Shown in pieces: positions 3,243 through 30,982 of a stretch of 32,000 bases of DNA. The notes under the pieces are model-generated. The model saw nothing but the letters and a program-made list of their open reading frames with translations. It was not told the origin of the DNA and searched no databases. A program made the translations under genes and the position numbers. This DNA comes from Methylophaga frappieri (GTDB taxonomy: Bacteria; Pseudomonadota; Gammaproteobacteria; Nitrosococcales; Methylophagaceae), in the NCBI RefSeq assembly GCF_000260965.1, contig NC_017856.1:2010001-2042000 (forward strand), written 5' to 3'. Numbering within the stretch: position 1 is the stretch's first letter; each line of letters begins with the position of its first letter.

Positions 3243-3342
3243 AAGTGAGGCCTGTTTCGCATGATTAAACTGCGCCGATGAAAATGCCGTGTTTGGTGAT
3301 TATTTAAGGATTACAGGGAATTTTATTCCCGTTAATAACAAG

Positions 3343-4216
3343 TTGGGCGGCAATTGAGGCATAGGAGTAGCTTTGGAAGTTAAGAACAATCCAGCGGGTC
3401 GCCTTCATGACCTTTTGCGTACTGCACAAAAACAACCCGCGAAAGAGAGGGCGCGGAATGCTTGGGGAAAAGTCTTTAAGGTAGAGCCAGGTGACACCGG
3501 TTTGCTGCTCGAAATGCTGGCGAACCTGATTGGTCTCGTGTCAGATACAAAAACGGCCATTGAACGCCTCGACGACGTGGATCACGCGCTGTACCTAAAA
3601 CCATTCAAGAAACTCGAGGTTTTCCTGTCGCAGGTGAACTTGGATGCAGGATGGGAACATTGGCAGAAGCAACTTGATGAGCCGACCCTTTACGGGTTGC
3701 AGTTTGCTGCGGATCGACTTTCGCGCAACAGCGGTAGCACCTCAATTTCTGAGAAGGACATCGAGGAGCTACAGGTTGAACTCGAGGAATTTGTTTCAAG
3801 CGTGCTCAAATCCGATCTTCCGTCTGGGCTAAAAGCACTGTTCCTGAGAAATCTTGAAGCTGTGCGCCACGCACTTTTGGTTTTTAGAATTCGCGGCATT
3901 GATGGCTTGGAGCACGAGCTGGAAAGGGCTATTGGTTCGTTGCTGCTCAATCAGGAGCATATTCCCCCAGCTGGAGATAAATCCGCTCCAAGAAAATTTT
4001 GGGAGCGATTCTTTGTTGTTATAGAACGCATCAATAAAGCGGTCACGCTGAGCCGAGGCGCGAAGGAACTTGCCGGCCCCGCAATGCAGGCCATTGAACA
4101 CATGATAGGCAAGTGAAGTTGCCGCCCAACAAATCGCTGCAGGGGACGTTTGACCCGCCGCCCATTTTTGCTTCCGCAAAAAGGGTCGTTGCCTCAAACG
4201 CCCCTGAGCTCAGGCG
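3343..4216 (+). mobile_element. integron-type gene cassette (single ORF plus attC) outside any visible integron
   Basis: The left junction is G|TTGGGC (3342-3348, fits GTTRRRY). The right junction is G|TTACGC (4216-4222). The left core is the exact complement of the attC inverse core GCCCAAC (4124-4130). Complementarity extends to 12 bp (3342-3353 GTTGGGCGGCAA versus 4119-4130 TTGCCGCCCAAC). The 874-bp unit has a short 5' leader, one ORF, and attC starting 8 nt after the stop. Confidence 0.7.
3373..4116 (+). CDS. hypothetical protein (247 aa, predicted largely alpha-helical, no signal peptide or TM segment); cassette cargo
   Basis: TTG start at 3373 with AGGAG at 3363-3367. The ORF is the longest in the interval and fills the cassette. 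I recognise no family signature. Confidence 0.6.
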   Translation: MEVKNNPAGRLHDLLRTAQKQPAKERARNAWGKVFKVEPGDTGLLLEMLANLIGLVSDTKTAIERLDDVDHALYLKPFKKLEVFLSQVNLDAGWEHWQKQLDEPTLYGLQFAADRLSRNSGSTSISEKDIEELQVELEEFVSSVLKSDLPSGLKALFLRNLEAVRHALLVFRIRGIDGLEHELERAIGSLLLNQEHIPPAGDKSAPRKFWERFFVVIERINKAVTLSRGAKELAGPAMQAIEHMIGK

Positions 4217-4222
4217 TTACGC
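4124..4222 (+). other. attC (59-base-element-type) recombination site, ~99 bp
   Basis: Elements in order:
- R'' GCCCAAC (4124-4130).
- Unpaired spacer AAATC.
- L'' GCT(G)CAGGGG(A)C (4136-4147), pairing with L' GCCCCTGAGC (4200-4209) and leaving G4139 and A4146 extrahelical.
- Variable arm stems GTTTGA/TCAAAC (4148-4153/4194-4199) and CCC(A)TTTTTGC/GCAAAAAGGG (4161-4171/4176-4185).
- Spacer TCAGGC.
- R' GTTACGC (4216-4222).
The outline resembles the aadA attC (…TCTAACAATTCGTTCAAGCCGAC…GGCTTAACTCAAGCGTTAGA). Confidence 0.7.
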
Positions 4223-4229
4223 AATGAAA

Positions 4230-4264
4230 GAATCAAAGGAGTCAGAGTCTGCCCCCTTTGATTC
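4230..4264 (-). terminator. candidate terminator hairpin downstream of metE
   Basis: 10-bp perfect stem GAATCAAAGG / CCTTTGATTC with a 15-nt loop. On the minus strand it is followed by TTTCATT. It lies ~96 nt past the metE stop. The T-tract is weak. Confidence 0.3.
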
Positions 4265-6639: not shown

Positions 6640-6719
6640 TAGTATGCCTCCAAACCAATCTTGAAGGCATTGTAATGGTCACTGTCGATAAAAAATAATG
6701 ATATTTATTCCATGATCTA

Positions 6720-6732
6720 TGAAACTATCTCA
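6720..6732. promoter_or_regulatory. candidate MetR box upstream of metE
   Basis: TGAAACTATCTCA matches the E. coli MetR consensus TGAA-N5-TTCA at 7 of 8 specified positions. It lies 81-93 bp upstream of the metE start. The flanking inverted repeat TCCATGA (6709-6715) / TCATGGA (6740-6746) brackets it. Confidence 0.3.
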
Positions 6733-6843
6733 TGAATTGTCATGGAGAATATCTACCTGCCCAACGCAGGAAAACCATTTGATTATCTGAAACAGGATGG
6801 TTAATCGTTAATGCTGTAAAGGCTTATGGAAATACCGACTAAA

Positions 6844-16980: not shown

Positions 16981-17697
16981 ATGGATCCGATTTTAGTTAC
17001 GGGCGCGAGTCGGCGTGTAGGATTACATATTGCCCAGCGTCTCCATGCTGATGGTTACAAGGTGTTAGCGCATTACCGCACAGAAACGGATGGGGTGCAA
17101 TCATTACGCGATGCGGGTGTTGATTTGATTCAGGCGGATTTTGATAGTCAATCGGCGATTTTGAGTTTTGTTCAGCTGCTTAAAACCCGGTATCCAAACT
17201 ATCGTGGCATCATTCACAATGCGTCCACTTTCACGCCAACAGAGTCAGATCTGACCGCTGCGGCAAGTCAATATGCAGCTTTTTTTCATGTTCATATGCT
17301 GGCGCCCTTTCTCATCAATCAGGCGCTTGCCGAGCAATTACGCGGCGAACAGGATAGCCCGGCGGATATTGTGCATATCACTGATATTAATGCCGAAAAC
17401 CCAACCCCGCGGTTTGATAGTTACGGCACGACCAAAGCGGGTTTGCATAACATGATGCTGGCAATGGCAAAAAAATTAGCGCCCAAAATCAAAGTCAATG
17501 CCGTTGCGCCCGGCCCCGTCTTGTTTAATGTGTCTCATACGCCAGCAGCCAGACAGGAAATGTTATCCGAGACCCCGCTTGCCTGCGAAGGTGGCGCCGA
17601 ACCTGTTTATCTGGCGGTGCGCAGTTTATTGCAAAACCCGTTTTTGACTGGTGTCAGTATCCCGGTCGATGGTGGTCGGCGTTTGTCCAAAAAATAA
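16981..17697 (+). CDS. folM: dihydromonapterin/pteridine reductase, SDR family (FolM-like)
   Basis: The 238-aa ORF is collinear with E. coli FolM: ILVTGASRRVGL (ITGGGRRIGL), YRT, IQADF, IHNAS, KLAPKIKVNAVAPGP, PVDGGRRL. It lies next to folK-like and folB. Confidence 0.8.
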   Translation: MDPILVTGASRRVGLHIAQRLHADGYKVLAHYRTETDGVQSLRDAGVDLIQADFDSQSAILSFVQLLKTRYPNYRGIIHNASTFTPTESDLTAAASQYAAFFHVHMLAPFLINQALAEQLRGEQDSPADIVHITDINAENPTPRFDSYGTTKAGLHNMMLAMAKKLAPKIKVNAVAPGPVLFNVSHTPAARQEMLSETPLACEGGAEPVYLAVRSLLQNPFLTGVSIPVDGGRRLSKK

Positions 17698-24753: not shown

Positions 24754-24830
<77 letters not shown>

Positions 24831-25041: not shown

Positions 25042-25842
25042 TCAAACCCTGGCTTTCTGTTCTCTCGGCGCATACTCAAACACATCGGAATAGCAGTTTT
25101 TCTCTTTTAAACCTTTGAGTTCAAGCTGATCGATGGTGCCGTAGACCATTTGTGGAGAGCCGCACAGATAAGCCTGAACATCTTCCAATGCGTCAAAGTC
25201 TTCTTGAATCACTTGATAGATAAAGCCGGAGCGGCCAGTCCAGTCTGCATTGGCGGATTCCAGAATGGGCGTAAAGTGAAGGTTGTCATGTTGGGCAGCC
25301 CAGTCTTGAAACGCATCGAGCAGGTAAAACTCATCGGCCTGCCGGTTTGACCAGTAAATATGCACTTCGGCATCGGGTTTTTGCCGGACAATTTCTTCTG
25401 TGATGGCTTTAATTTTCGCGATGCCTGAGCCTGCAGCCACTAAAAGATGCGGCAAGCCAAGGTCTGTTTGCAGATAGGCGCGGCCCATTGGCAAGGCGAC
25501 TTTGAGATTGGCTTTATTATCATTTAAATCAGACAGGCGGTTTAAAATCTTGCCGGCAAAGTCGCTGCCATTTTGGATAATGAGCTGTAAACGACGTGGT
25601 TGATCAGGGTTAACACTGTTGGCAATGGAATAAGAGAGTGACTGATATTGCCCATCACCATTGACATCAAGTTCGAGCTGCAAATGTTGGCCTGCATCAT
25701 AGGCGAGTGTCGAGCCAGCTGGGGTCTCCAATTCAATTTGATAGGTGTCTTTGCTTAACGGTGAGACAGCTAAAACCTGGCAGGCATGTTCAACGACTGG
25801 GCGCGCTGGGTTTGGTGTGGCAGTAGACATATAAAAATCCAT
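25042..25842 (-). CDS. Fre/LuxG-like NAD(P)H-flavin reductase (ferredoxin-NADP reductase-fold FAD/NAD-binding oxidoreductase)
   Basis: 266 aa: flavin-binding LSYSIAN (RxYS-like), NAD-binding LLVAAGSGIAKI, C-terminal YLCGSPQMV. The start could instead be the ATG at 25830 (MSTATPN...). The gene is divergent from metR. Confidence 0.75.
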   Translation of the reverse strand: MDFYMSTATPNPARPVVEHACQVLAVSPLSKDTYQIELETPAGSTLAYDAGQHLQLELDVNGDGQYQSLSYSIANSVNPDQPRRLQLIIQNGSDFAGKILNRLSDLNDNKANLKVALPMGRAYLQTDLGLPHLLVAAGSGIAKIKAITEEIVRQKPDAEVHIYWSNRQADEFYLLDAFQDWAAQHDNLHFTPILESANADWTGRSGFIYQVIQEDFDALEDVQAYLCGSPQMVYGTIDQLELKGLKEKNCYSDVFEYAPREQKARV

Positions 25843-25919
25843 TCTTAGGGTATTTCAAGGATGAGACCAGTTTAAAGTACTTTTAAAATGAATAAAAATG
25901 GTATATTTTCACAAATCAA

Positions 25920-25932
25920 TTAATTTTATTCA
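25920..25932. promoter_or_regulatory. candidate MetR box in the fre-like/metR divergent region
   Basis: TTAATTTTATTCA (reverse complement TGAATAAAATTAA) matches TGAA-N5-TTCA at 7 of 8 positions. It abuts the metR start region. A weaker related copy, TGAATAAAAATGG, lies at 25888-25900. Confidence 0.3.
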
Positions 25933-25940
25933 TGACTGTT

Positions 25941-26849
25941 ATGATTGAGCGTATTCATCTTAAAGTAGTACATGCAGTTGAGGTACATGGTTCTTTGACA
26001 GCGGCGGCCAAAGAATTATGCGTGACGCAATCGGCTTTAAGTCACACCATGCGAAAACTGGAAGATAATCTCGGTACCGAAGTGTGGCTGCGTGAGGGAC
26101 GCAGTTTAAGATTGACGCAGGCTGGCCGGTATCTGCTGAACATCGCCAATCGGGTTTTGCCGTTGCTGGATTATGCTGAGGATAAGCTCAAGCAGATCGC
26201 TCTAGGCGAGCGGGGAACATTGCGAATTGGCATGGAATGTCACCCGTGCTATCAGTGGCTTTTGAAAGTGGTCGCGCCGTTTTTAGATTCGTGGCCGGAT
26301 GTCGATGTCGATGTAAAACAGAAATTTCAGTTTGGCGGGGTTGGCGCGCTGGAAGATTATGAAATCGATTTATTGGTCACGCCCGATCCCATCTATAAAA
26401 CGGGGCTGAGTTTTACCCCGGTGTTTGATTATGAGCAGGTATTGGTCGTGCCGCGCCAGCATGCATTAGCGCGCTTTGACTATATTGAAGCACAAGCGTT
26501 AGCTGATGAAGTGTTACTGACGTATCCGGTTGCAACAGAACGCTTGGATATCTACACCCATTTTCTGAATCCGGCTGAAGTCCTGCCCAAACAGCACAAA
26601 ACCAGTGAAACCACCGAAATCATTCTGCAAATGGTCGCGTCGGGTCGTGGCGTGGCTGCGCTGCCACGCTGGCTGGCGGAAGAATACTGCACAAAATTAC
26701 CGTTATCGGTCGTGCGTTTAGGCGAAGCCGGTATCGCCAAGCAAATCTATTTAGGTACGCGTGAAAGTGACCAGAATATTGAATACCTCAAGGCATTCAT
26801 TGACCTGGCACGCAGTTATAAATATCCCTTGGATCCAGCTAAAGTATAA
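25941..26849 (+). CDS. metR: LysR-family transcriptional activator MetR
   Basis: Collinear with E. coli MetR: MIE..HLK, SLTAAA..L..TQSALSH, LRIGMECHPCYQWL (IECHSCIQWL), PVFDYEQVLVV (PMFDYEVRLVL), LLTYPV...RLDIYTHFL, LQMVASGRGVAALPRWL. The ATG at 25941 is chosen by alignment; the ATG at 25932 is also possible. Confidence 0.85.
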   Translation: MIERIHLKVVHAVEVHGSLTAAAKELCVTQSALSHTMRKLEDNLGTEVWLREGRSLRLTQAGRYLLNIANRVLPLLDYAEDKLKQIALGERGTLRIGMECHPCYQWLLKVVAPFLDSWPDVDVDVKQKFQFGGVGALEDYEIDLLVTPDPIYKTGLSFTPVFDYEQVLVVPRQHALARFDYIEAQALADEVLLTYPVATERLDIYTHFLNPAEVLPKQHKTSETTEIILQMVASGRGVAALPRWLAEEYCTKLPLSVVRLGEAGIAKQIYLGTRESDQNIEYLKAFIDLARSYKYPLDPAKV

Positions 26850-26947
26850 ATCCCACGATGCGCTGCCATATTGATTTGATATGGCTTATCGTATTTATGC
26901 ATAACTGGGCTTATGTTGTTATTCAATGGTCGGCTTGGTTATATGCA

Positions 26948-26960
26948 TGAATAAATATCA
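26948..26960. promoter_or_regulatory. candidate MetR box upstream of mesX-mesD
   Basis: TGAATAAATATCA matches TGAA-N5-TTCA at 7 of 8 positions. It lies ~90 bp upstream of the DUF1852 gene in an AT-rich 193-bp intergenic region. Confidence 0.3.
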
Positions 26961-27048
26961 TCATTATATGAGATAAAATCAATTTTTTTCATGTGGAAAC
27001 CCCTGTATAAAGTGCACTTTAGATTTACCTCAAGATACAGGAATGACC

Positions 27049-28026
27049 ATGAGTACCGGTTTTCAATACACGATTAAGCGGATAAGTTTCGACGAAAACT
27101 ATCATCCCGCTGATAGCACGCGGATCACGACAAACTTCGCCAATCTGGCAAGGGGTGAACACCGTCAAGAAAATTTACGCAAAGCTTTGCGCATGGTGGA
27201 TAGCCGCTTTAATGCATTGGCTCAGTGGGATAATCCCAAGGCCGATCGCTATGCGGTTGAGCTGGAAATTATTTCAGTAGATGTCGATATTGAGGGCAAT
27301 GGTCAACATTTTCCGTCGATTGAAATATTGAAAACTACTATTGTGGATAACCAAACCAACCAGCGTATTGATGGCATTGTCGGCAATAACTTTTCTTCTT
27401 ACGTACGTGACTATGACTTCAGCGTATTGCTGTTGGAACACAATAAAGGTAAAGCAGGCTTCAGCATTCCAGATAACTACGGTGAGTTGCACGGCAAACT
27501 GTTCAAAGATTTCATCAACTCAGACGTTTACAAAGAAAACTTCAAAAAACCACCCGTGATTTGTCTGAGTGTATCCGATAACAAAACCTATCATCGCACC
27601 GATAATCATCATCCGATTCTGGGCGTTGAATACGAGCCGAATGAATCGTCATTGACAGAGCAGTATTTTAAAAAGATGGGCTTAAGGGTCCGTTACTTTA
27701 TGCCGGAAGACAGTGTTGCGCCTTTGGCATTCTACTTTTTTGGTGACTTACTCAACGATTACACCAACCTGGAACTGATTGGCACCATCAGTACGATGGA
27801 GACATTCCAAAAAATCTATCGTCCCGAGATTTATAATGCCAATGCCGTTGCTGGAAGTGCCTATCAACCGAATTTGAAGCATGCCGATCATTCATTAACG
27901 CAGATCGTTTATGACCGTGAAGAACGCAGCCAGTTAGCGATTAAGCAGGGTAAATTTGCTGAAGAAAACTTCATCAAACCCTACAAGGCGATTCTTGACC
28001 AATGGTCTGAACAATACGCTTCTTAA
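27049..28026 (+). CDS. mesX: DUF1852 domain protein (MesX, accessory protein of the MesD methionine synthase)
   Basis: The ~325-aa ORF has segments I recognise as DUF1852: HPADSTRITTNFANLARGEHRQENL, GNNFSSYVRDYDFSVLLLEHNKG, PPVICLSVS, LGVEYEP, ISTMETFQKIYRPEIYNAN. I prefer the ATG at 27049 (AGGA at 27039-42, 6-nt spacing). The ATG at 27043 abuts the AGGA. Confidence 0.8.
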   Translation: MSTGFQYTIKRISFDENYHPADSTRITTNFANLARGEHRQENLRKALRMVDSRFNALAQWDNPKADRYAVELEIISVDVDIEGNGQHFPSIEILKTTIVDNQTNQRIDGIVGNNFSSYVRDYDFSVLLLEHNKGKAGFSIPDNYGELHGKLFKDFINSDVYKENFKKPPVICLSVSDNKTYHRTDNHHPILGVEYEPNESSLTEQYFKKMGLRVRYFMPEDSVAPLAFYFFGDLLNDYTNLELIGTISTMETFQKIYRPEIYNANAVAGSAYQPNLKHADHSLTQIVYDREERSQLAIKQGKFAEENFIKPYKAILDQWSEQYAS

Positions 28027-28047
28027 TGGATCAAAATAGAAATAGAA

Positions 28048-29076
28048 ATGATGAAAAAATTATTACCCACTTCCACTGCCGGCAGTTTGCCGAAACCTTC
28101 TTGGCTTGCTGAGCCGGAAAAACTTTGGTCACCGTGGAAATTAGACGGCGACGAACTGGTGAGTGGCAAGCAAGATGCCTTACGCCTGTCATTACAAGAA
28201 CAGCAACAGGCTGGACTGGATATCGTCGGTGACGGCGAGCAATCTCGTCAGCACTTTGTCACGACCTTTATCGAACATCTTGATGGGGTTGATTTCGCCA
28301 AACGTGAAACGGTAAAAATCCGTGATCGTTATGACGCGAGCGTGCCAACTGTGGTCAGTGCCGTGAGCCGTCAAAAACCGGTGTTTGTTGAAGACGCGAA
28401 GTTTTTACGTACTCAAACGGATCAACCCATCAAATGGGCGTTGCCAGGTCCGATGACCATGATTGATACGCTGTATGATGCACATTACAAAAGTCGTGAA
28501 AAACTGGCTTGGGAATTTGCCAAAATCCTGAACCAGGAAGCAAAAGAGTTAGAAGCGGCAGGCGTAGATATTATCCAGTTTGATGAGCCGGCATTTAACG
28601 TGTTCTTCGATGAAGTCAATGACTGGGGTATTGCCACACTGGAAAGAGCCATCGAAGGCCTGAAATGCGAAACCGCTGTGCACATTTGCTACGGTTACGG
28701 TATTCAAGCCAATACCGATTGGAAAAAAACCTTGGGTGCAGAATGGCGTCAATATGAAAATATTTTCCCTAAACTGCAACAATCCAACATCGATATGATC
28801 TCGTTGGAATGCCATAACTCGCATGTGCCGATGGATTTGATTGAACTGATCCGTGGCAAAAAAGTTATGGTCGGCGCGATTGATGTGGCGAGCAATACTA
28901 TCGAAACGCCAGAAGAAGTGGCAGACACGCTGCGTAGAGCATTGCAGTTTGTTGAAGTGGATTTGTTATGCCCATGCACCAACTGCGGCATGGCACCGTT
29001 ACCGCGTCACATTGCCAGAGCGAAGCTCAATGCATTGACTGCCGGGGCAGAAATCATTAGAAAAGAACTGGCTTAG
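28048..29076 (+). CDS. mesD: core (single-domain, folate-binding-domain-less) MetE-like methionine synthase, MesD type
   Basis: The 342-aa ORF is homologous to the MetE C-terminal catalytic domain only: LPTSTAGSLPKP.WL, D.GLDIVGDGEQSRQHF, IQFDEPAF. Putative Zn ligands are VHICYGY, SLECH and CTNCGM. It lies 21 nt downstream of the DUF1852 gene. Confidence 0.8.
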   Translation: MMKKLLPTSTAGSLPKPSWLAEPEKLWSPWKLDGDELVSGKQDALRLSLQEQQQAGLDIVGDGEQSRQHFVTTFIEHLDGVDFAKRETVKIRDRYDASVPTVVSAVSRQKPVFVEDAKFLRTQTDQPIKWALPGPMTMIDTLYDAHYKSREKLAWEFAKILNQEAKELEAAGVDIIQFDEPAFNVFFDEVNDWGIATLERAIEGLKCETAVHICYGYGIQANTDWKKTLGAEWRQYENIFPKLQQSNIDMISLECHNSHVPMDLIELIRGKKVMVGAIDVASNTIETPEEVADTLRRALQFVEVDLLCPCTNCGMAPLPRHIARAKLNALTAGAEIIRKELA

Positions 29077-29091
29077 TGCTTTTTGATTCTC

Positions 29092-29135
29092 AACAGGCTA
29101 TGGGTGCTTCGGTGTTCATAGCCTGTTTTTGTTTG
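29092..29135 (+). terminator. rho-independent terminator after mesD
   Basis: 11-bp perfect stem AACAGGCTATG (29092-29102) / CATAGCCTGTT (29117-29127) with a 14-nt loop, followed by a T-rich tract TTTTTGTTTGTTGTTT. Confidence 0.7.
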
Positions 29136-29161: not shown

Positions 29162-29992
29162 ATGAATGTCATTGAATTTATTAGCACGCATCTCTCGACC
29201 TTATTGGCATTGATTGCGACAGGCGCCTTTGCCGGTGTATTAGCCGGTTTATTAGGGGTCGGCGGCGGTATTGTTATCGTGCCAGTCTTGTTTTTCCTGT
29301 TTCAAGGCTTTGGCGTTTCGCCGGAATCAGCGATGGTCATCGCGACTGCGACGTCATTGGCAACCATCGTACCGACTTCCATTAGCTCAATTCGTTCTCA
29401 TAACCGCAAAGGCAACGTCGATTTTGATCTATTAAGACGGTGGGCGGGCTTTATTCTTATCGGTGTTCTAGTGGGTAGTTGGCTAGTAACAAGGGTTGAT
29501 GGCACATCGTTGACCGTGATGTTTGGGGTTATTGCGACATTATCGGCATTAAATATGTTGTTTAGAACCGGTAAATCAGCGTTGTTCGATCAGTTGCCCG
29601 GCAAAGCAGGGCAGGCGGCAATTGGTTCTGGTATTGGTTTTTTTAGCTCGATGGTCGGTATTGGTGGCGGTACGCTCACAGTACCTACGCTGACATTATG
29701 TAACTATCCAGCGCATAAAGCGGTGGGTACGGCAGCGGCGATTGGCTTAATTATTTCCTTACCGGGTGCGTTAACCATGTTGATATTAGGTACCACACCC
29801 GCTGATGCTCCAGTTGGCACTTATGGACTGGTGAATCTAATCGGCTTTGTCTGCATTGTGCCACTCACCGTGCTATTCGCACCGGTAGGCGCCACACTCG
29901 CTAACAAACTAGATGCAACAAAACTGAAAAAAGTCTTTGCGGTAGTCTTGCTCATCACGGGCTTAAGGATGTTGCTGCAGCTGTCCTTATAA
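29162..29992 (+). CDS. TauE/SafE (TSUP, DUF81) family anion exporter-like membrane protein
   Basis: The 276-aa polytopic membrane protein has the duplicated GLLGVGGGIVIVP / SMVGIGGGTLTVP motifs characteristic of TSUP/DUF81 proteins. Confidence 0.8.
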   Translation: MNVIEFISTHLSTLLALIATGAFAGVLAGLLGVGGGIVIVPVLFFLFQGFGVSPESAMVIATATSLATIVPTSISSIRSHNRKGNVDFDLLRRWAGFILIGVLVGSWLVTRVDGTSLTVMFGVIATLSALNMLFRTGKSALFDQLPGKAGQAAIGSGIGFFSSMVGIGGGTLTVPTLTLCNYPAHKAVGTAAAIGLIISLPGALTMLILGTTPADAPVGTYGLVNLIGFVCIVPLTVLFAPVGATLANKLDATKLKKVFAVVLLITGLRMLLQLSL

Positions 29993-30152: not shown

Positions 30153-30461
30153 TTATTTACGCCAATAATCATTGGCGATTGCGATGGTTTTGAACTCGAT
30201 GGCTACCAGTTCGGCAGCATTCATTAATAACTGTGGATCCTCGGCATATTTGGCTCTGACACGATGTTTGGCTGCAACATCAGTTTGGATTGTACCAATG
30301 GTTTTCCTGACGATGGTCATGGCTAGTTGCCTGCCTTCATAGGGTGTCTCGGTAATCAGTGATGGCAGGTAGTTATCATTAGCCATCATTTCCTGTGCGG
30401 CAAGATTGACGGGAATGACAGCAGTCAACGCGGTAAGCAATAATATTTTTTTAGTAATCAT
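30153..30461 (-). CDS. hypothetical small secreted protein (102 aa)
   Basis: Signal peptide MITKKILLLTALTAVIPVNLAA|QE. The mature part is ~80 aa and I recognise no family. The gene is divergent from the MarR/OhrR-like gene and has its own terminator hairpin. Confidence 0.5.
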   Translation of the reverse strand: MITKKILLLTALTAVIPVNLAAQEMMANDNYLPSLITETPYEGRQLAMTIVRKTIGTIQTDVAAKHRVRAKYAEDPQLLMNAAELVAIEFKTIAIANDYWRK

Positions 30462-30562: not shown

Positions 30563-30982
30563 ATGGGGCCTAGACTAAACGAGCAGGTATGCTTTGCACT
30601 CTACTCTACAAGTGGCACGATAACGCGCGCTTATCAGCGTTTATTGGCGCCTCATCGTCTGACTTATCCTCAGTTTGTTGTGATGATGTCACTTTGGCAT
30701 CATGATGGGGCGACACAGAAAGCCATCGCAGAATCCATTGGCATAACCAAAGGGACGCTCAGCCCAATCCTGAAAAATCTGGAAATGAACGGCTATATCA
30801 CTCGCAATAGTCCGCCAGGCAATGATCGGATTAAATCCGTGTTTCTGACCACGGCGGGTAAGACTTTAGCAGAACAGGGTGAACGAATTGCGGAGCAAGC
30901 ATTGTGTGCAACCGGGCTGACATTAACTGAAGCCAATGACGTGATCCGTCTTTGTACGAAAATAAAGGATCATCTAGGGTAG
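30563..30982 (+). CDS. MarR-family regulator of the OhrR (organic hydroperoxide-sensing) subgroup
   Basis: 139 aa. LNEQVCFALYS matches the OhrR sensing-Cys motif (LENQLCFLLY/LDNQLCFALY), with Cys10 at codon 30590-30592. TYPQFVVMMSLW (TYPQYLV...LW) and GTLSPILKNLEMNGYITR follow. A second Cys (Cys115, EQALCATG) is as in 2-Cys OhrR proteins. Confidence 0.7.
   Translation: MGPRLNEQVCFALYSTSGTITRAYQRLLAPHRLTYPQFVVMMSLWHHDGATQKAIAESIGITKGTLSPILKNLEMNGYITRNSPPGNDRIKSVFLTTAGKTLAEQGERIAEQALCATGLTLTEANDVIRLCTKIKDHLG

Follow-up and report, generated by a model that had tools for sequence, protein, structure and literature searches.

The 32,000-nucleotide (nt) stretch of the Methylophaga frappieri genome analysed here (NC_017856.1, positions 2,010,001 to 2,042,000; hereafter the window) very probably carries a functional MesX/MesD module, that is, a predicted O2-dependent methionine synthase that would use neither methyl-folate nor cobalamin, on what appears to be a horizontally mobile cassette of five genes. 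On the map of open reading frames (ORFs) a fre-like flavin reductase gene on the minus strand is divergent from a metR-like regulator gene, which is followed by mesX, mesD and tauE, all on the plus strand (Table 1). Expression and activity of the module in M. frappieri are what we infer from its sequence. As a member of its family, which is published and widespread, the locus is unremarkable, and the genome has a public annotation. Our additions are modest: a conserved mobile five-gene cassette, reductase supplied by three unrelated folds, a strong linkage of TauE, operator words that mesX and metE have in common, and a MesX fold that appears to be new. The family itself deserves attention, since it makes methionine without B12 or methyl-folate, resists nitrous oxide (N2O) and is widespread, including on plasmids of Klebsiella, Acinetobacter and Pantoea. 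The source of its methyl group has been a question since 2021, and in our opinion the additions listed above make the methyl donor more tractable.

The initial annotation described the family after Price et al. 2021 (PMC7857596), in agreement with the paper: genetics on orthologs established that MesD requires MesX and O2, and that it requires neither MetF nor cobalamin, with no use of 5-methyl-tetrahydrofolate (5-methyl-THF). According to a 2026 paper MesD is also insensitive to N2O, and papers of that year still treat the mechanism and the methyl donor of MesD/MesX as unresolved.

Judged by its sequence, the 342-amino-acid protein of the window is a MesD. In Pfam, PF01717 covers residues 6-332 with 125.8 bits, and the N-terminal folate domain PF08267 scores 19.9 bits, under the 27-bit cut-off, which bears out the earlier suggestion that the protein is homologous only to the catalytic half of MetE. 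Its alignment with the window's own MetE (23% identity) extends only across MetE residues 428-756, and there all the suggested site residues line up with MetE motifs: the zinc ligands H212, C214, E254 and C313, and the homocysteine-binding residues S13, E64 and D179. Price et al. 2021 defined MesD by at least 390 bits in BLASTP or at least 560 bits in phmmer against ACIAD3523. We checked this similarity by proxy, with NF006589, the Acinetobacter bereziniae ortholog and the PDB entry 3rpd in place of ACIAD3523; the ortholog is 86% identical (625 bits), and 3rpd is near-identical across 339 residues (667 bits). Thus a catalytic domain alone, high similarity, adjacency to mesX and conserved residues all place the protein in MesD.

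The PF01717 fold is common to MetE and MesA-C, and on that ground the protein might be no more than a metE paralog that has been truncated or has degenerated, or else a MesA-C-type core synthase that depends on a corrinoid; in either case it would have nothing to do with O2 chemistry. We find this extremely hard to credit, given that the MesD model NF006589 scores 696 bits and the other core-synthase models in NCBIfam at most 229, that the Acinetobacter ortholog is so similar, that the gene is paired with mesX, and that the ORF is intact with every catalytic residue present; moreover, MesA-C are limited to strict anaerobes (PMC7857596).

The start of mesD lies 21 nt past the stop of mesX, as the initial annotation had it, and the hidden Markov model check of family membership that it proposed puts both proteins far above the cut-offs. 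MesX matches PF08908 (DUF1852) over its full length, at profile positions 1-322 of 323, and is 78-79% identical to its A. bereziniae ortholog. Taken together, the family models, 3rpd and the conserved residues agree with the reading of the locus as a predicted O2-dependent, folate-independent methionine synthase that stands beside metE. The full-length metE gene was indeed found, some 21 kb from the locus. Such coexistence is ordinary, as MetE also occurs in 32% of the genomes with MesD (PMC7857596).

What MesX is in structural terms we addressed with an AlphaFold2 model from a 23-sequence alignment that includes members at 31-45% identity (pLDDT 91.2, pTM 0.90). A first model, from 10 sequences at about 80% identity, had reached a pLDDT of 48.7, and its fold search was discarded as meaningless. 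Foldseek comparison of the good model with the PDB returned nothing significant (best E-value 0.15, probability at most 0.13, TM-score at most 0.3), and sequence and profile searches of the PDB with MesX found no relative. As modelled, MesX therefore appears to have a fold without a solved relative, apparently a novel one. In comparison with members as distant as 31% identity, 37 positions, all of them defined on the MesX of the window, do not vary; among them are one histidine, many Arg, Ser, Thr, Asn, Tyr and Asp, and no cysteine. This pattern speaks against an iron site of the classical 2-His-1-carboxylate kind, as well as against S-methyl-cysteine as an intermediate. Homologs of MesX are plentiful (at least 8000 clusters at 90% identity, 79-93% identical to the query), of which clustering at 50% leaves only 331 representatives, mostly fragments. 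Among these representatives no fusion protein of the Rosetta-stone kind was found; two members are over-length, without a second Pfam domain.

The neighbourhood of the pair was studied in the best 80 of at least 576 species loci, each with 10-kb flanks, in which ORFs were called and neighbours clustered without prior assumptions. As an internal control, the inner flanks, which reach out to 3 kb and amount to 455 kb, were set against the outer ones, which cover 3-10 kb and amount to 891 kb. The adjacency of mesX and mesD is nearly universal: mesD lies directly downstream in 79 of the 80 species, and the pair is kept in all ten distant plasmid contexts. MesX/MesD are present in at least 576 GTDB species, and mesXD occur on 211 plasmid or chromid records, 74 of them conjugative or mobilizable. 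The cassette stands beside insertion sequence (IS) elements, an integrase or conjugation genes in loci L086 and L087 and in several plasmids.

Several observations on single loci belong here. The mesXD plasmids include clinical ones of Klebsiella and Acinetobacter (e.g. L101, a 128-kb plasmid of Klebsiella pneumoniae, and L096-L099), and IS elements often flank the genes. Identities of about 76-92% are kept by MesX, MesD and the downstream type of TauE in several gammaproteobacterial orders and also in a metagenome-assembled genome of Verrucomicrobia (L072), whereas the Fre-like proteins encoded with them reach only 57-67%. Identity this high points to very strong constraint on the three-gene core, to its recent horizontal spread, or to both. 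In two unrelated plasmids queH, the gene of a cobalamin-independent epoxyqueuosine reductase, is found immediately upstream of mesX (L096, Acinetobacter schindleri, 3317-3985; L095, Robbsia andropogonis, 3582-4253); the former also encodes a 'methylenetetrahydrofolate reductase C-terminal domain' protein. The position of queH hints at mobile islands of B12-independent functions. Finally, Pseudoalteromonas luteoviolacea H33-S (L080, 3182-7280) has mesX with a divergent tauE and without mesD; a 509-amino-acid protein, beta-lactamase/esterase-like by eye only, is encoded about 380 nt past mesX. A second strain of the species (L088) has a complete mesX-mesD-tauE locus, and the copy in H33-S may be an orphan or a decaying second copy.

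The initial annotation put forward the linked flavin reductase as a new clue to the mechanism. The divergent arrangement of this gene and the regulator gene was confirmed, and the linkage stands; its novelty does not, because it had already been published, and Price et al. predicted from it that MesX uses flavin (PMC7857596). The reductase has the PF00970+PF00175 architecture, and its best NCBIfam match is Fre (NF005963) with 152 bits, where the cut-off of 230 bits is not reached; by sequence it belongs to a distinct Fre-like clade. Its likely true start is at 25830, giving 262 rather than 266 amino acids, and the public annotation begins at that ATG. In a reverse look-up, all six Fre-like homologs at 57-67% identity turned out to be encoded divergently from (metR)-mesX-mesD-tauE with unrelated outer flanks, and two of the six loci adjoin IS or conjugation genes. 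The co-occurrence across genomes that had been proposed as a check is seen for a dedicated clade, but only in six of the 80 nearest species (six of 33 genera; six genes in inner flanks, none in outer). The Fre-type clade is, on these sequences, tightly tied to the cassette yet confined to one lineage.

Other lineages place other reductases beside mesXD. A flavin reductase of the HpaC type (PF01613) is linked in five of the 80 loci and four of the 33 genera, with five genes in inner flanks and one in outer; it lies directly 3' of mesD in Acinetobacter, Cellvibrio and others, and is met again in Thioclava and in Acinetobacter plasmids, in the latter followed by a truncated TauE gene. In a Comamonadaceae plasmid a flavin mononucleotide (FMN) reductase of the SsuE/MsuE type (PF03358) is encoded directly upstream of mesX, with a MetR-like gene divergent. 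The reductases thus come from three unrelated folds (PF00970/PF00175, PF01613 and PF03358). That three unrelated folds fill one role argues that the co-substrate is free, diffusible reduced flavin, and takes the published prediction a step further. This is the pattern of two-component flavin monooxygenases (SsuE/SsuD, HpaC/HpaB, LuxG/luciferase), in which the gene of a small NAD(P)H:flavin reductase likewise lies beside that of an O2-requiring enzyme. Lineages with mesXD differ in the reductase family that they use, which is what one would expect if the substrate in common were free reduced flavin. Unlike those systems, MesX matches no known monooxygenase fold or PDB sequence, and its use of flavin is putative.

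The TauE/TSUP membrane-protein gene, to which the initial annotation had drawn attention, proved a real clue. The protein matches PF01925 over the full profile (positions 1-237 of 237), and the gene starts after an 85-nt gap 3' of mesD. Members of the family are linked in 44 of the 80 loci and 16 of the 33 genera; all 44 of the genes lie in inner flanks and none in outer. The co-occurrence that was to be looked for across genomes is present. Two arrangements of PF01925 genes occur, one upstream of mesX and divergent (32 genes, about 33% identity to the TauE of the window) and one downstream on the same strand (11 genes, about 80%). In the reverse look-up, all four TauE homologs at 82-84% identity adjoin mesD, one of them with an overlap of 4 nt, and none of the four loci has a linked fre or metR gene; overlap of tauE with mesD is seen in L077 and L091. 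The window type of TauE is 81-92% identical across orders, which equals the conservation of MesX and MesD. TauE is the most general and best-conserved accessory neighbour of mesXD and the strongest link that we found. Price et al. 2021 do not mention a transporter, TauE or LysR gene in their main text, and in the literature searched the TauE linkage is previously undiscussed.

PF01925 is named after exporters of sulfite and sulfoacetate, and methionine regulons often contain sulfur-related genes. Both points would suit a TauE that serves general sulfur metabolism, for example the export of sulfite or sulfonate tied to the supply of cysteine and homocysteine, rather than handling a substrate or product of MesX. 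We regard this as unlikely: all examined genes of the specific clade were found beside mesD and nowhere else, the outer flanks contain none of the 44 TauE genes, and unbiased clustering of the 80 neighbourhoods found no conserved sulfur-assimilation genes.

How could the parts work together? Accumulating homocysteine would cause a MetR-type activator, acting on the ATGA...TCAT dyads described below, to switch on mesXD, the divergent fre and the distant metE. From its family and linkage, the Fre-like enzyme is expected to spend NAD(P)H on free reduced flavin. With reduced flavin and O2, MesX would then produce or carry a methyl that derives from a central metabolite; here the requirement for O2 and MesX is that of Price et al., and the flavin and the donor are suppositions. 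MesD, with the residues seen here and the activity known from orthologs, would pass the methyl group to zinc-activated homocysteine to give methionine, and MesXD would serve M. frappieri as a second B12-independent route beside MetE. TauE/TSUP would be an accessory part, linked by position; as to its role, our guess is that it most likely carries an anionic by-product of MesX out of the cell or brings a precursor in. Stated in full, MesXD would be a system of four or five components: MesX as a reduced-flavin oxygenase of new fold, an interchangeable reductase, and TauE moving the precursor or oxidised by-product. We offer this full version tentatively, as a possibility on which we would not insist. 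If it is true of TauE, the cargo of the transporter would reveal the methyl donor of MesD/MesX.

A number of points weigh against this account of the module. Direct use of flavin by MesX is conjectural, because the protein has one invariant histidine, no invariant cysteine and no recognisable cofactor fold; neither a flavin-binding nor a metal-binding fold was found when its model was compared with the PDB by Foldseek. Sphingomonas koreensis mesD and mesX alone suffice in Escherichia coli, so a dedicated reductase or TauE is not strictly required (PMC7857596). The linkages are also far from general: any linked flavin reductase is found in only 11 of the 80 nearest species, a linked TauE is missing in 36 of the 80 loci, and Agrobacterium, Novosphingobium, Pantoea and Klebsiella carry the mesX-mesD pair only. 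As for the result in E. coli, this host has its own Fre and a TSUP protein, YfcA. Both the regulator and the reductase score under their NCBIfam equivalog cut-offs. Lastly, the window has a terminator-like hairpin between mesD and tauE. The hairpin is not conserved across the cassette loci, some of which lack it, while in others mesD and tauE overlap in its place; it is probably an attenuator that adjusts the expression of tauE, rather than an operon boundary that uncouples the gene. A conserved terminator between mesD and tauE was rejected as a candidate, since other loci are without it.

One may go further and regard fre and tauE as mere passengers on a mobile cassette, with mesXD functional and the other two playing no part in methionine synthesis. 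The mobile genes beside the cassette, the lack of a linked reductase at most mesXD loci, the sufficiency of mesXD in E. coli and the hairpin of the window would all be explained in this way. However, passengers would hardly be recruited independently from three non-homologous reductase folds, nor come as two TauE subfamilies, about 33% identical, in two different arrangements. The promoter region of fre has the same conserved operator words as those of mesX and metE, tauE overlaps mesD in some loci, and TauE is as strongly conserved as MesX and MesD. Furthermore, B12 in Acinetobacter baumannii represses the neighbouring flavin reductase (log2 -2.5) together with the DUF1852 gene (log2 -8.3), as was reported in 2026. 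In our opinion it is improbable that both genes are passengers.

The regulator has MetR (NF011950) as its best NCBIfam family with 217 bits, where the cut-off of 382 bits is not reached and the next family scores 121 bits. The MetR-like LysR regulator that had been noticed ahead of mesXD is thus real, and on its sequence it is best called MetR-like rather than MetR. Alignment with orthologous loci puts its likely true start at 25941 (MIER...) and not at 25932. LysR genes are present in 27 of the 80 loci, and MetR-like ones (at least 45% identity) in 17 loci of 13 of the 33 genera, all 17 in inner flanks and none in outer.

We cannot agree with the initial annotation that this regulator is dedicated to mesXD. 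Nine related loci conserve some 70 bp upstream of mesX, in which ATGA...TCAT dyads are followed by TATAAA; in the window the parts of this block are an ATGA-N7-TCAT dyad at 26947-26961, ATGAGATA, TCAATTTTTTTCA and a TATAAA -10-like element at 27006-27011. Within the window the ATGA-N7-TCAT dyad, ATGAGATA and the 13-mer GAATAAATATCAT each occur only upstream of mesX and metE; for the 13-mer, two occurrences compare with 0.05 expected, and none of 100 shuffles reached two. The spacer between fre and metR contains a block of about 47 bp, near-invariant across nine cassette loci, with half-sites like those upstream of mesX and metE. Near-consensus dyads of the TGAA-N5-TTCA type, candidate MetR sites by sequence, are conserved upstream of mesX and shared with metE. 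The generic MetR box TGAA-N5-TTCA with one mismatch is not enriched over the window (26 against 20 expected), and only the longer conserved words were taken as informative operator signals. Since these words are shared only with metE, and no LysR gene lies next to metE, the regulator does not look dedicated to mesXD. The simplest reading of the operators looks like a single MetR-type regulator for metE, mesXD, fre and its own gene. Control by riboswitches was considered and dropped, because an Rfam scan of the window for cobalamin, SAM and other riboswitches was empty.

Some lineages seem to have chosen another regulator. Tandem MetJ boxes (AGACGTCTAGACGTCT, at most 3 mismatches) are found upstream of mesX in nine of the 80 loci, mainly in Pseudoalteromonas and Rheinheimera (L024, L032, L042, L046, L052, L065, L069, L074 and L080), on a background of 0.004 per kb; there mesXD seems, from the boxes, to be under the control of MetJ, not MetR. 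MetJ boxes as a general cause of the divergent tauE arrangement were rejected, as they occur in only nine of 80 loci and not in Vibrio.

Compared with MesD/MesX of Acinetobacter baylyi ADP1 (ACIAD3523/3524) and S. koreensis (PLoS Genet 17:e1009342), the locus has the same families, the same order of mesX then mesD with a short spacer, the same catalytic residues, a linked flavin reductase and MetR-type boxes upstream. It differs from Acinetobacter in its reductase, which is of the Fre/FNR type and divergent here and of the PF01613 HpaC type directly after mesD there; the metR-like and TauE genes that adjoin here are missing from the chromosomal Acinetobacter loci. With MetE, MesD has in common the catalytic TIM-barrel, the zinc site (His-x-Cys, Glu, Cys), the homocysteine residues and apparently the MetR operator, whereas in place of 5-methyl-THF it needs MesX and O2. 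A solved structure of a MesD ortholog already exists: 3rpd, 'Methionine synthase (B12-independent)', is a structural-genomics entry that was deposited without MesX, a methyl donor or a functional study.

Table 1. Features of the methionine locus and of related sites in the window (positions counted from the first nucleotide of the window)
Feature	Position	Strand	Support
fre-like NAD(P)H:flavin reductase gene, FNR fold	25042-25842	-	PF00175 73 bits; PF00970 23.6 bits
Divergent fre-metR spacer, conserved operator/promoter block, ATGAATAAAAATGGTATATTTTCAC...TCAATTAATTTTATTCATG	25888-25934		near-invariant in nine cassette loci
MetR-like LysR-type regulator gene	25932-26849	+	PF00126 and PF03466
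mesX operator-promoter	26946-27011	+	conserved in nine related loci
mesX (DUF1852, 'putative oxygenase MesX')	27043-28026	+	PF08908 611 bits, cut-off 25
mesD, predicted catalytic-domain-only Zn-dependent homocysteine methyltransferase	28048-29076	+	NF006589/PRK09121 696 bits, cut-off 392
Terminator-like hairpin in the mesD-tauE gap, 16-bp stem and T-run	29092-29127	+	minimum free energy -22 kcal/mol
TauE/SafE (TSUP) membrane-protein gene	29162-29992	+	PF01925 178.5 bits, cut-off 32.6
Canonical full-length metE, folate-dependent and B12-independent, 759 amino acids	4360-6639	-	NF003556 1172 bits; TIGR01371 1105 bits
metE operator, with GAATAAATATCAT, ATGAGATA and the ATGA-N7-TCAT dyad as in the mesX promoter	6698-6733	-	word searches
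tRNA-Met(CAT), with terminator, directly upstream of the cassette	24754-24830	+	

The GC content of the cassette is 0.43-0.47, against 0.48-0.52 for most of the window. An island-type insertion at the neighbouring tRNA-Met gene was considered and rejected, because att-like direct repeats were not found.

The guess that the host metabolises C1 compounds was sound, as M. frappieri, to whose proteins the Fre-like and TauE proteins of the window are 100% identical, is a marine methylotroph. Genes of the tetrahydromethanopterin (H4MPT)/methanofuran type lie at 37-2199 of the window, namely a dihydropteroate-synthase-like gene and one of the (5-formylfuran-3-yl)methyl phosphate synthase family, and a dihydromonapterin/pteridine reductase-like gene of the short-chain dehydrogenase/reductase family lies at 16981-17697; all of them score below the NCBIfam equivalog cut-offs and are consistent with a methylotroph. 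On the other side of the cassette, HTHP, a hexameric tyrosine-coordinated heme protein (PF11534, 93 bits), is encoded at 30153-30461 on the minus strand, divergent from an OhrR-like MarR regulator gene at 30563-30982 on the plus strand. This pair of genes, which may be an organic-peroxide response module, is met again in Enterovibrio (L031), some 6 kb downstream of mesXD.

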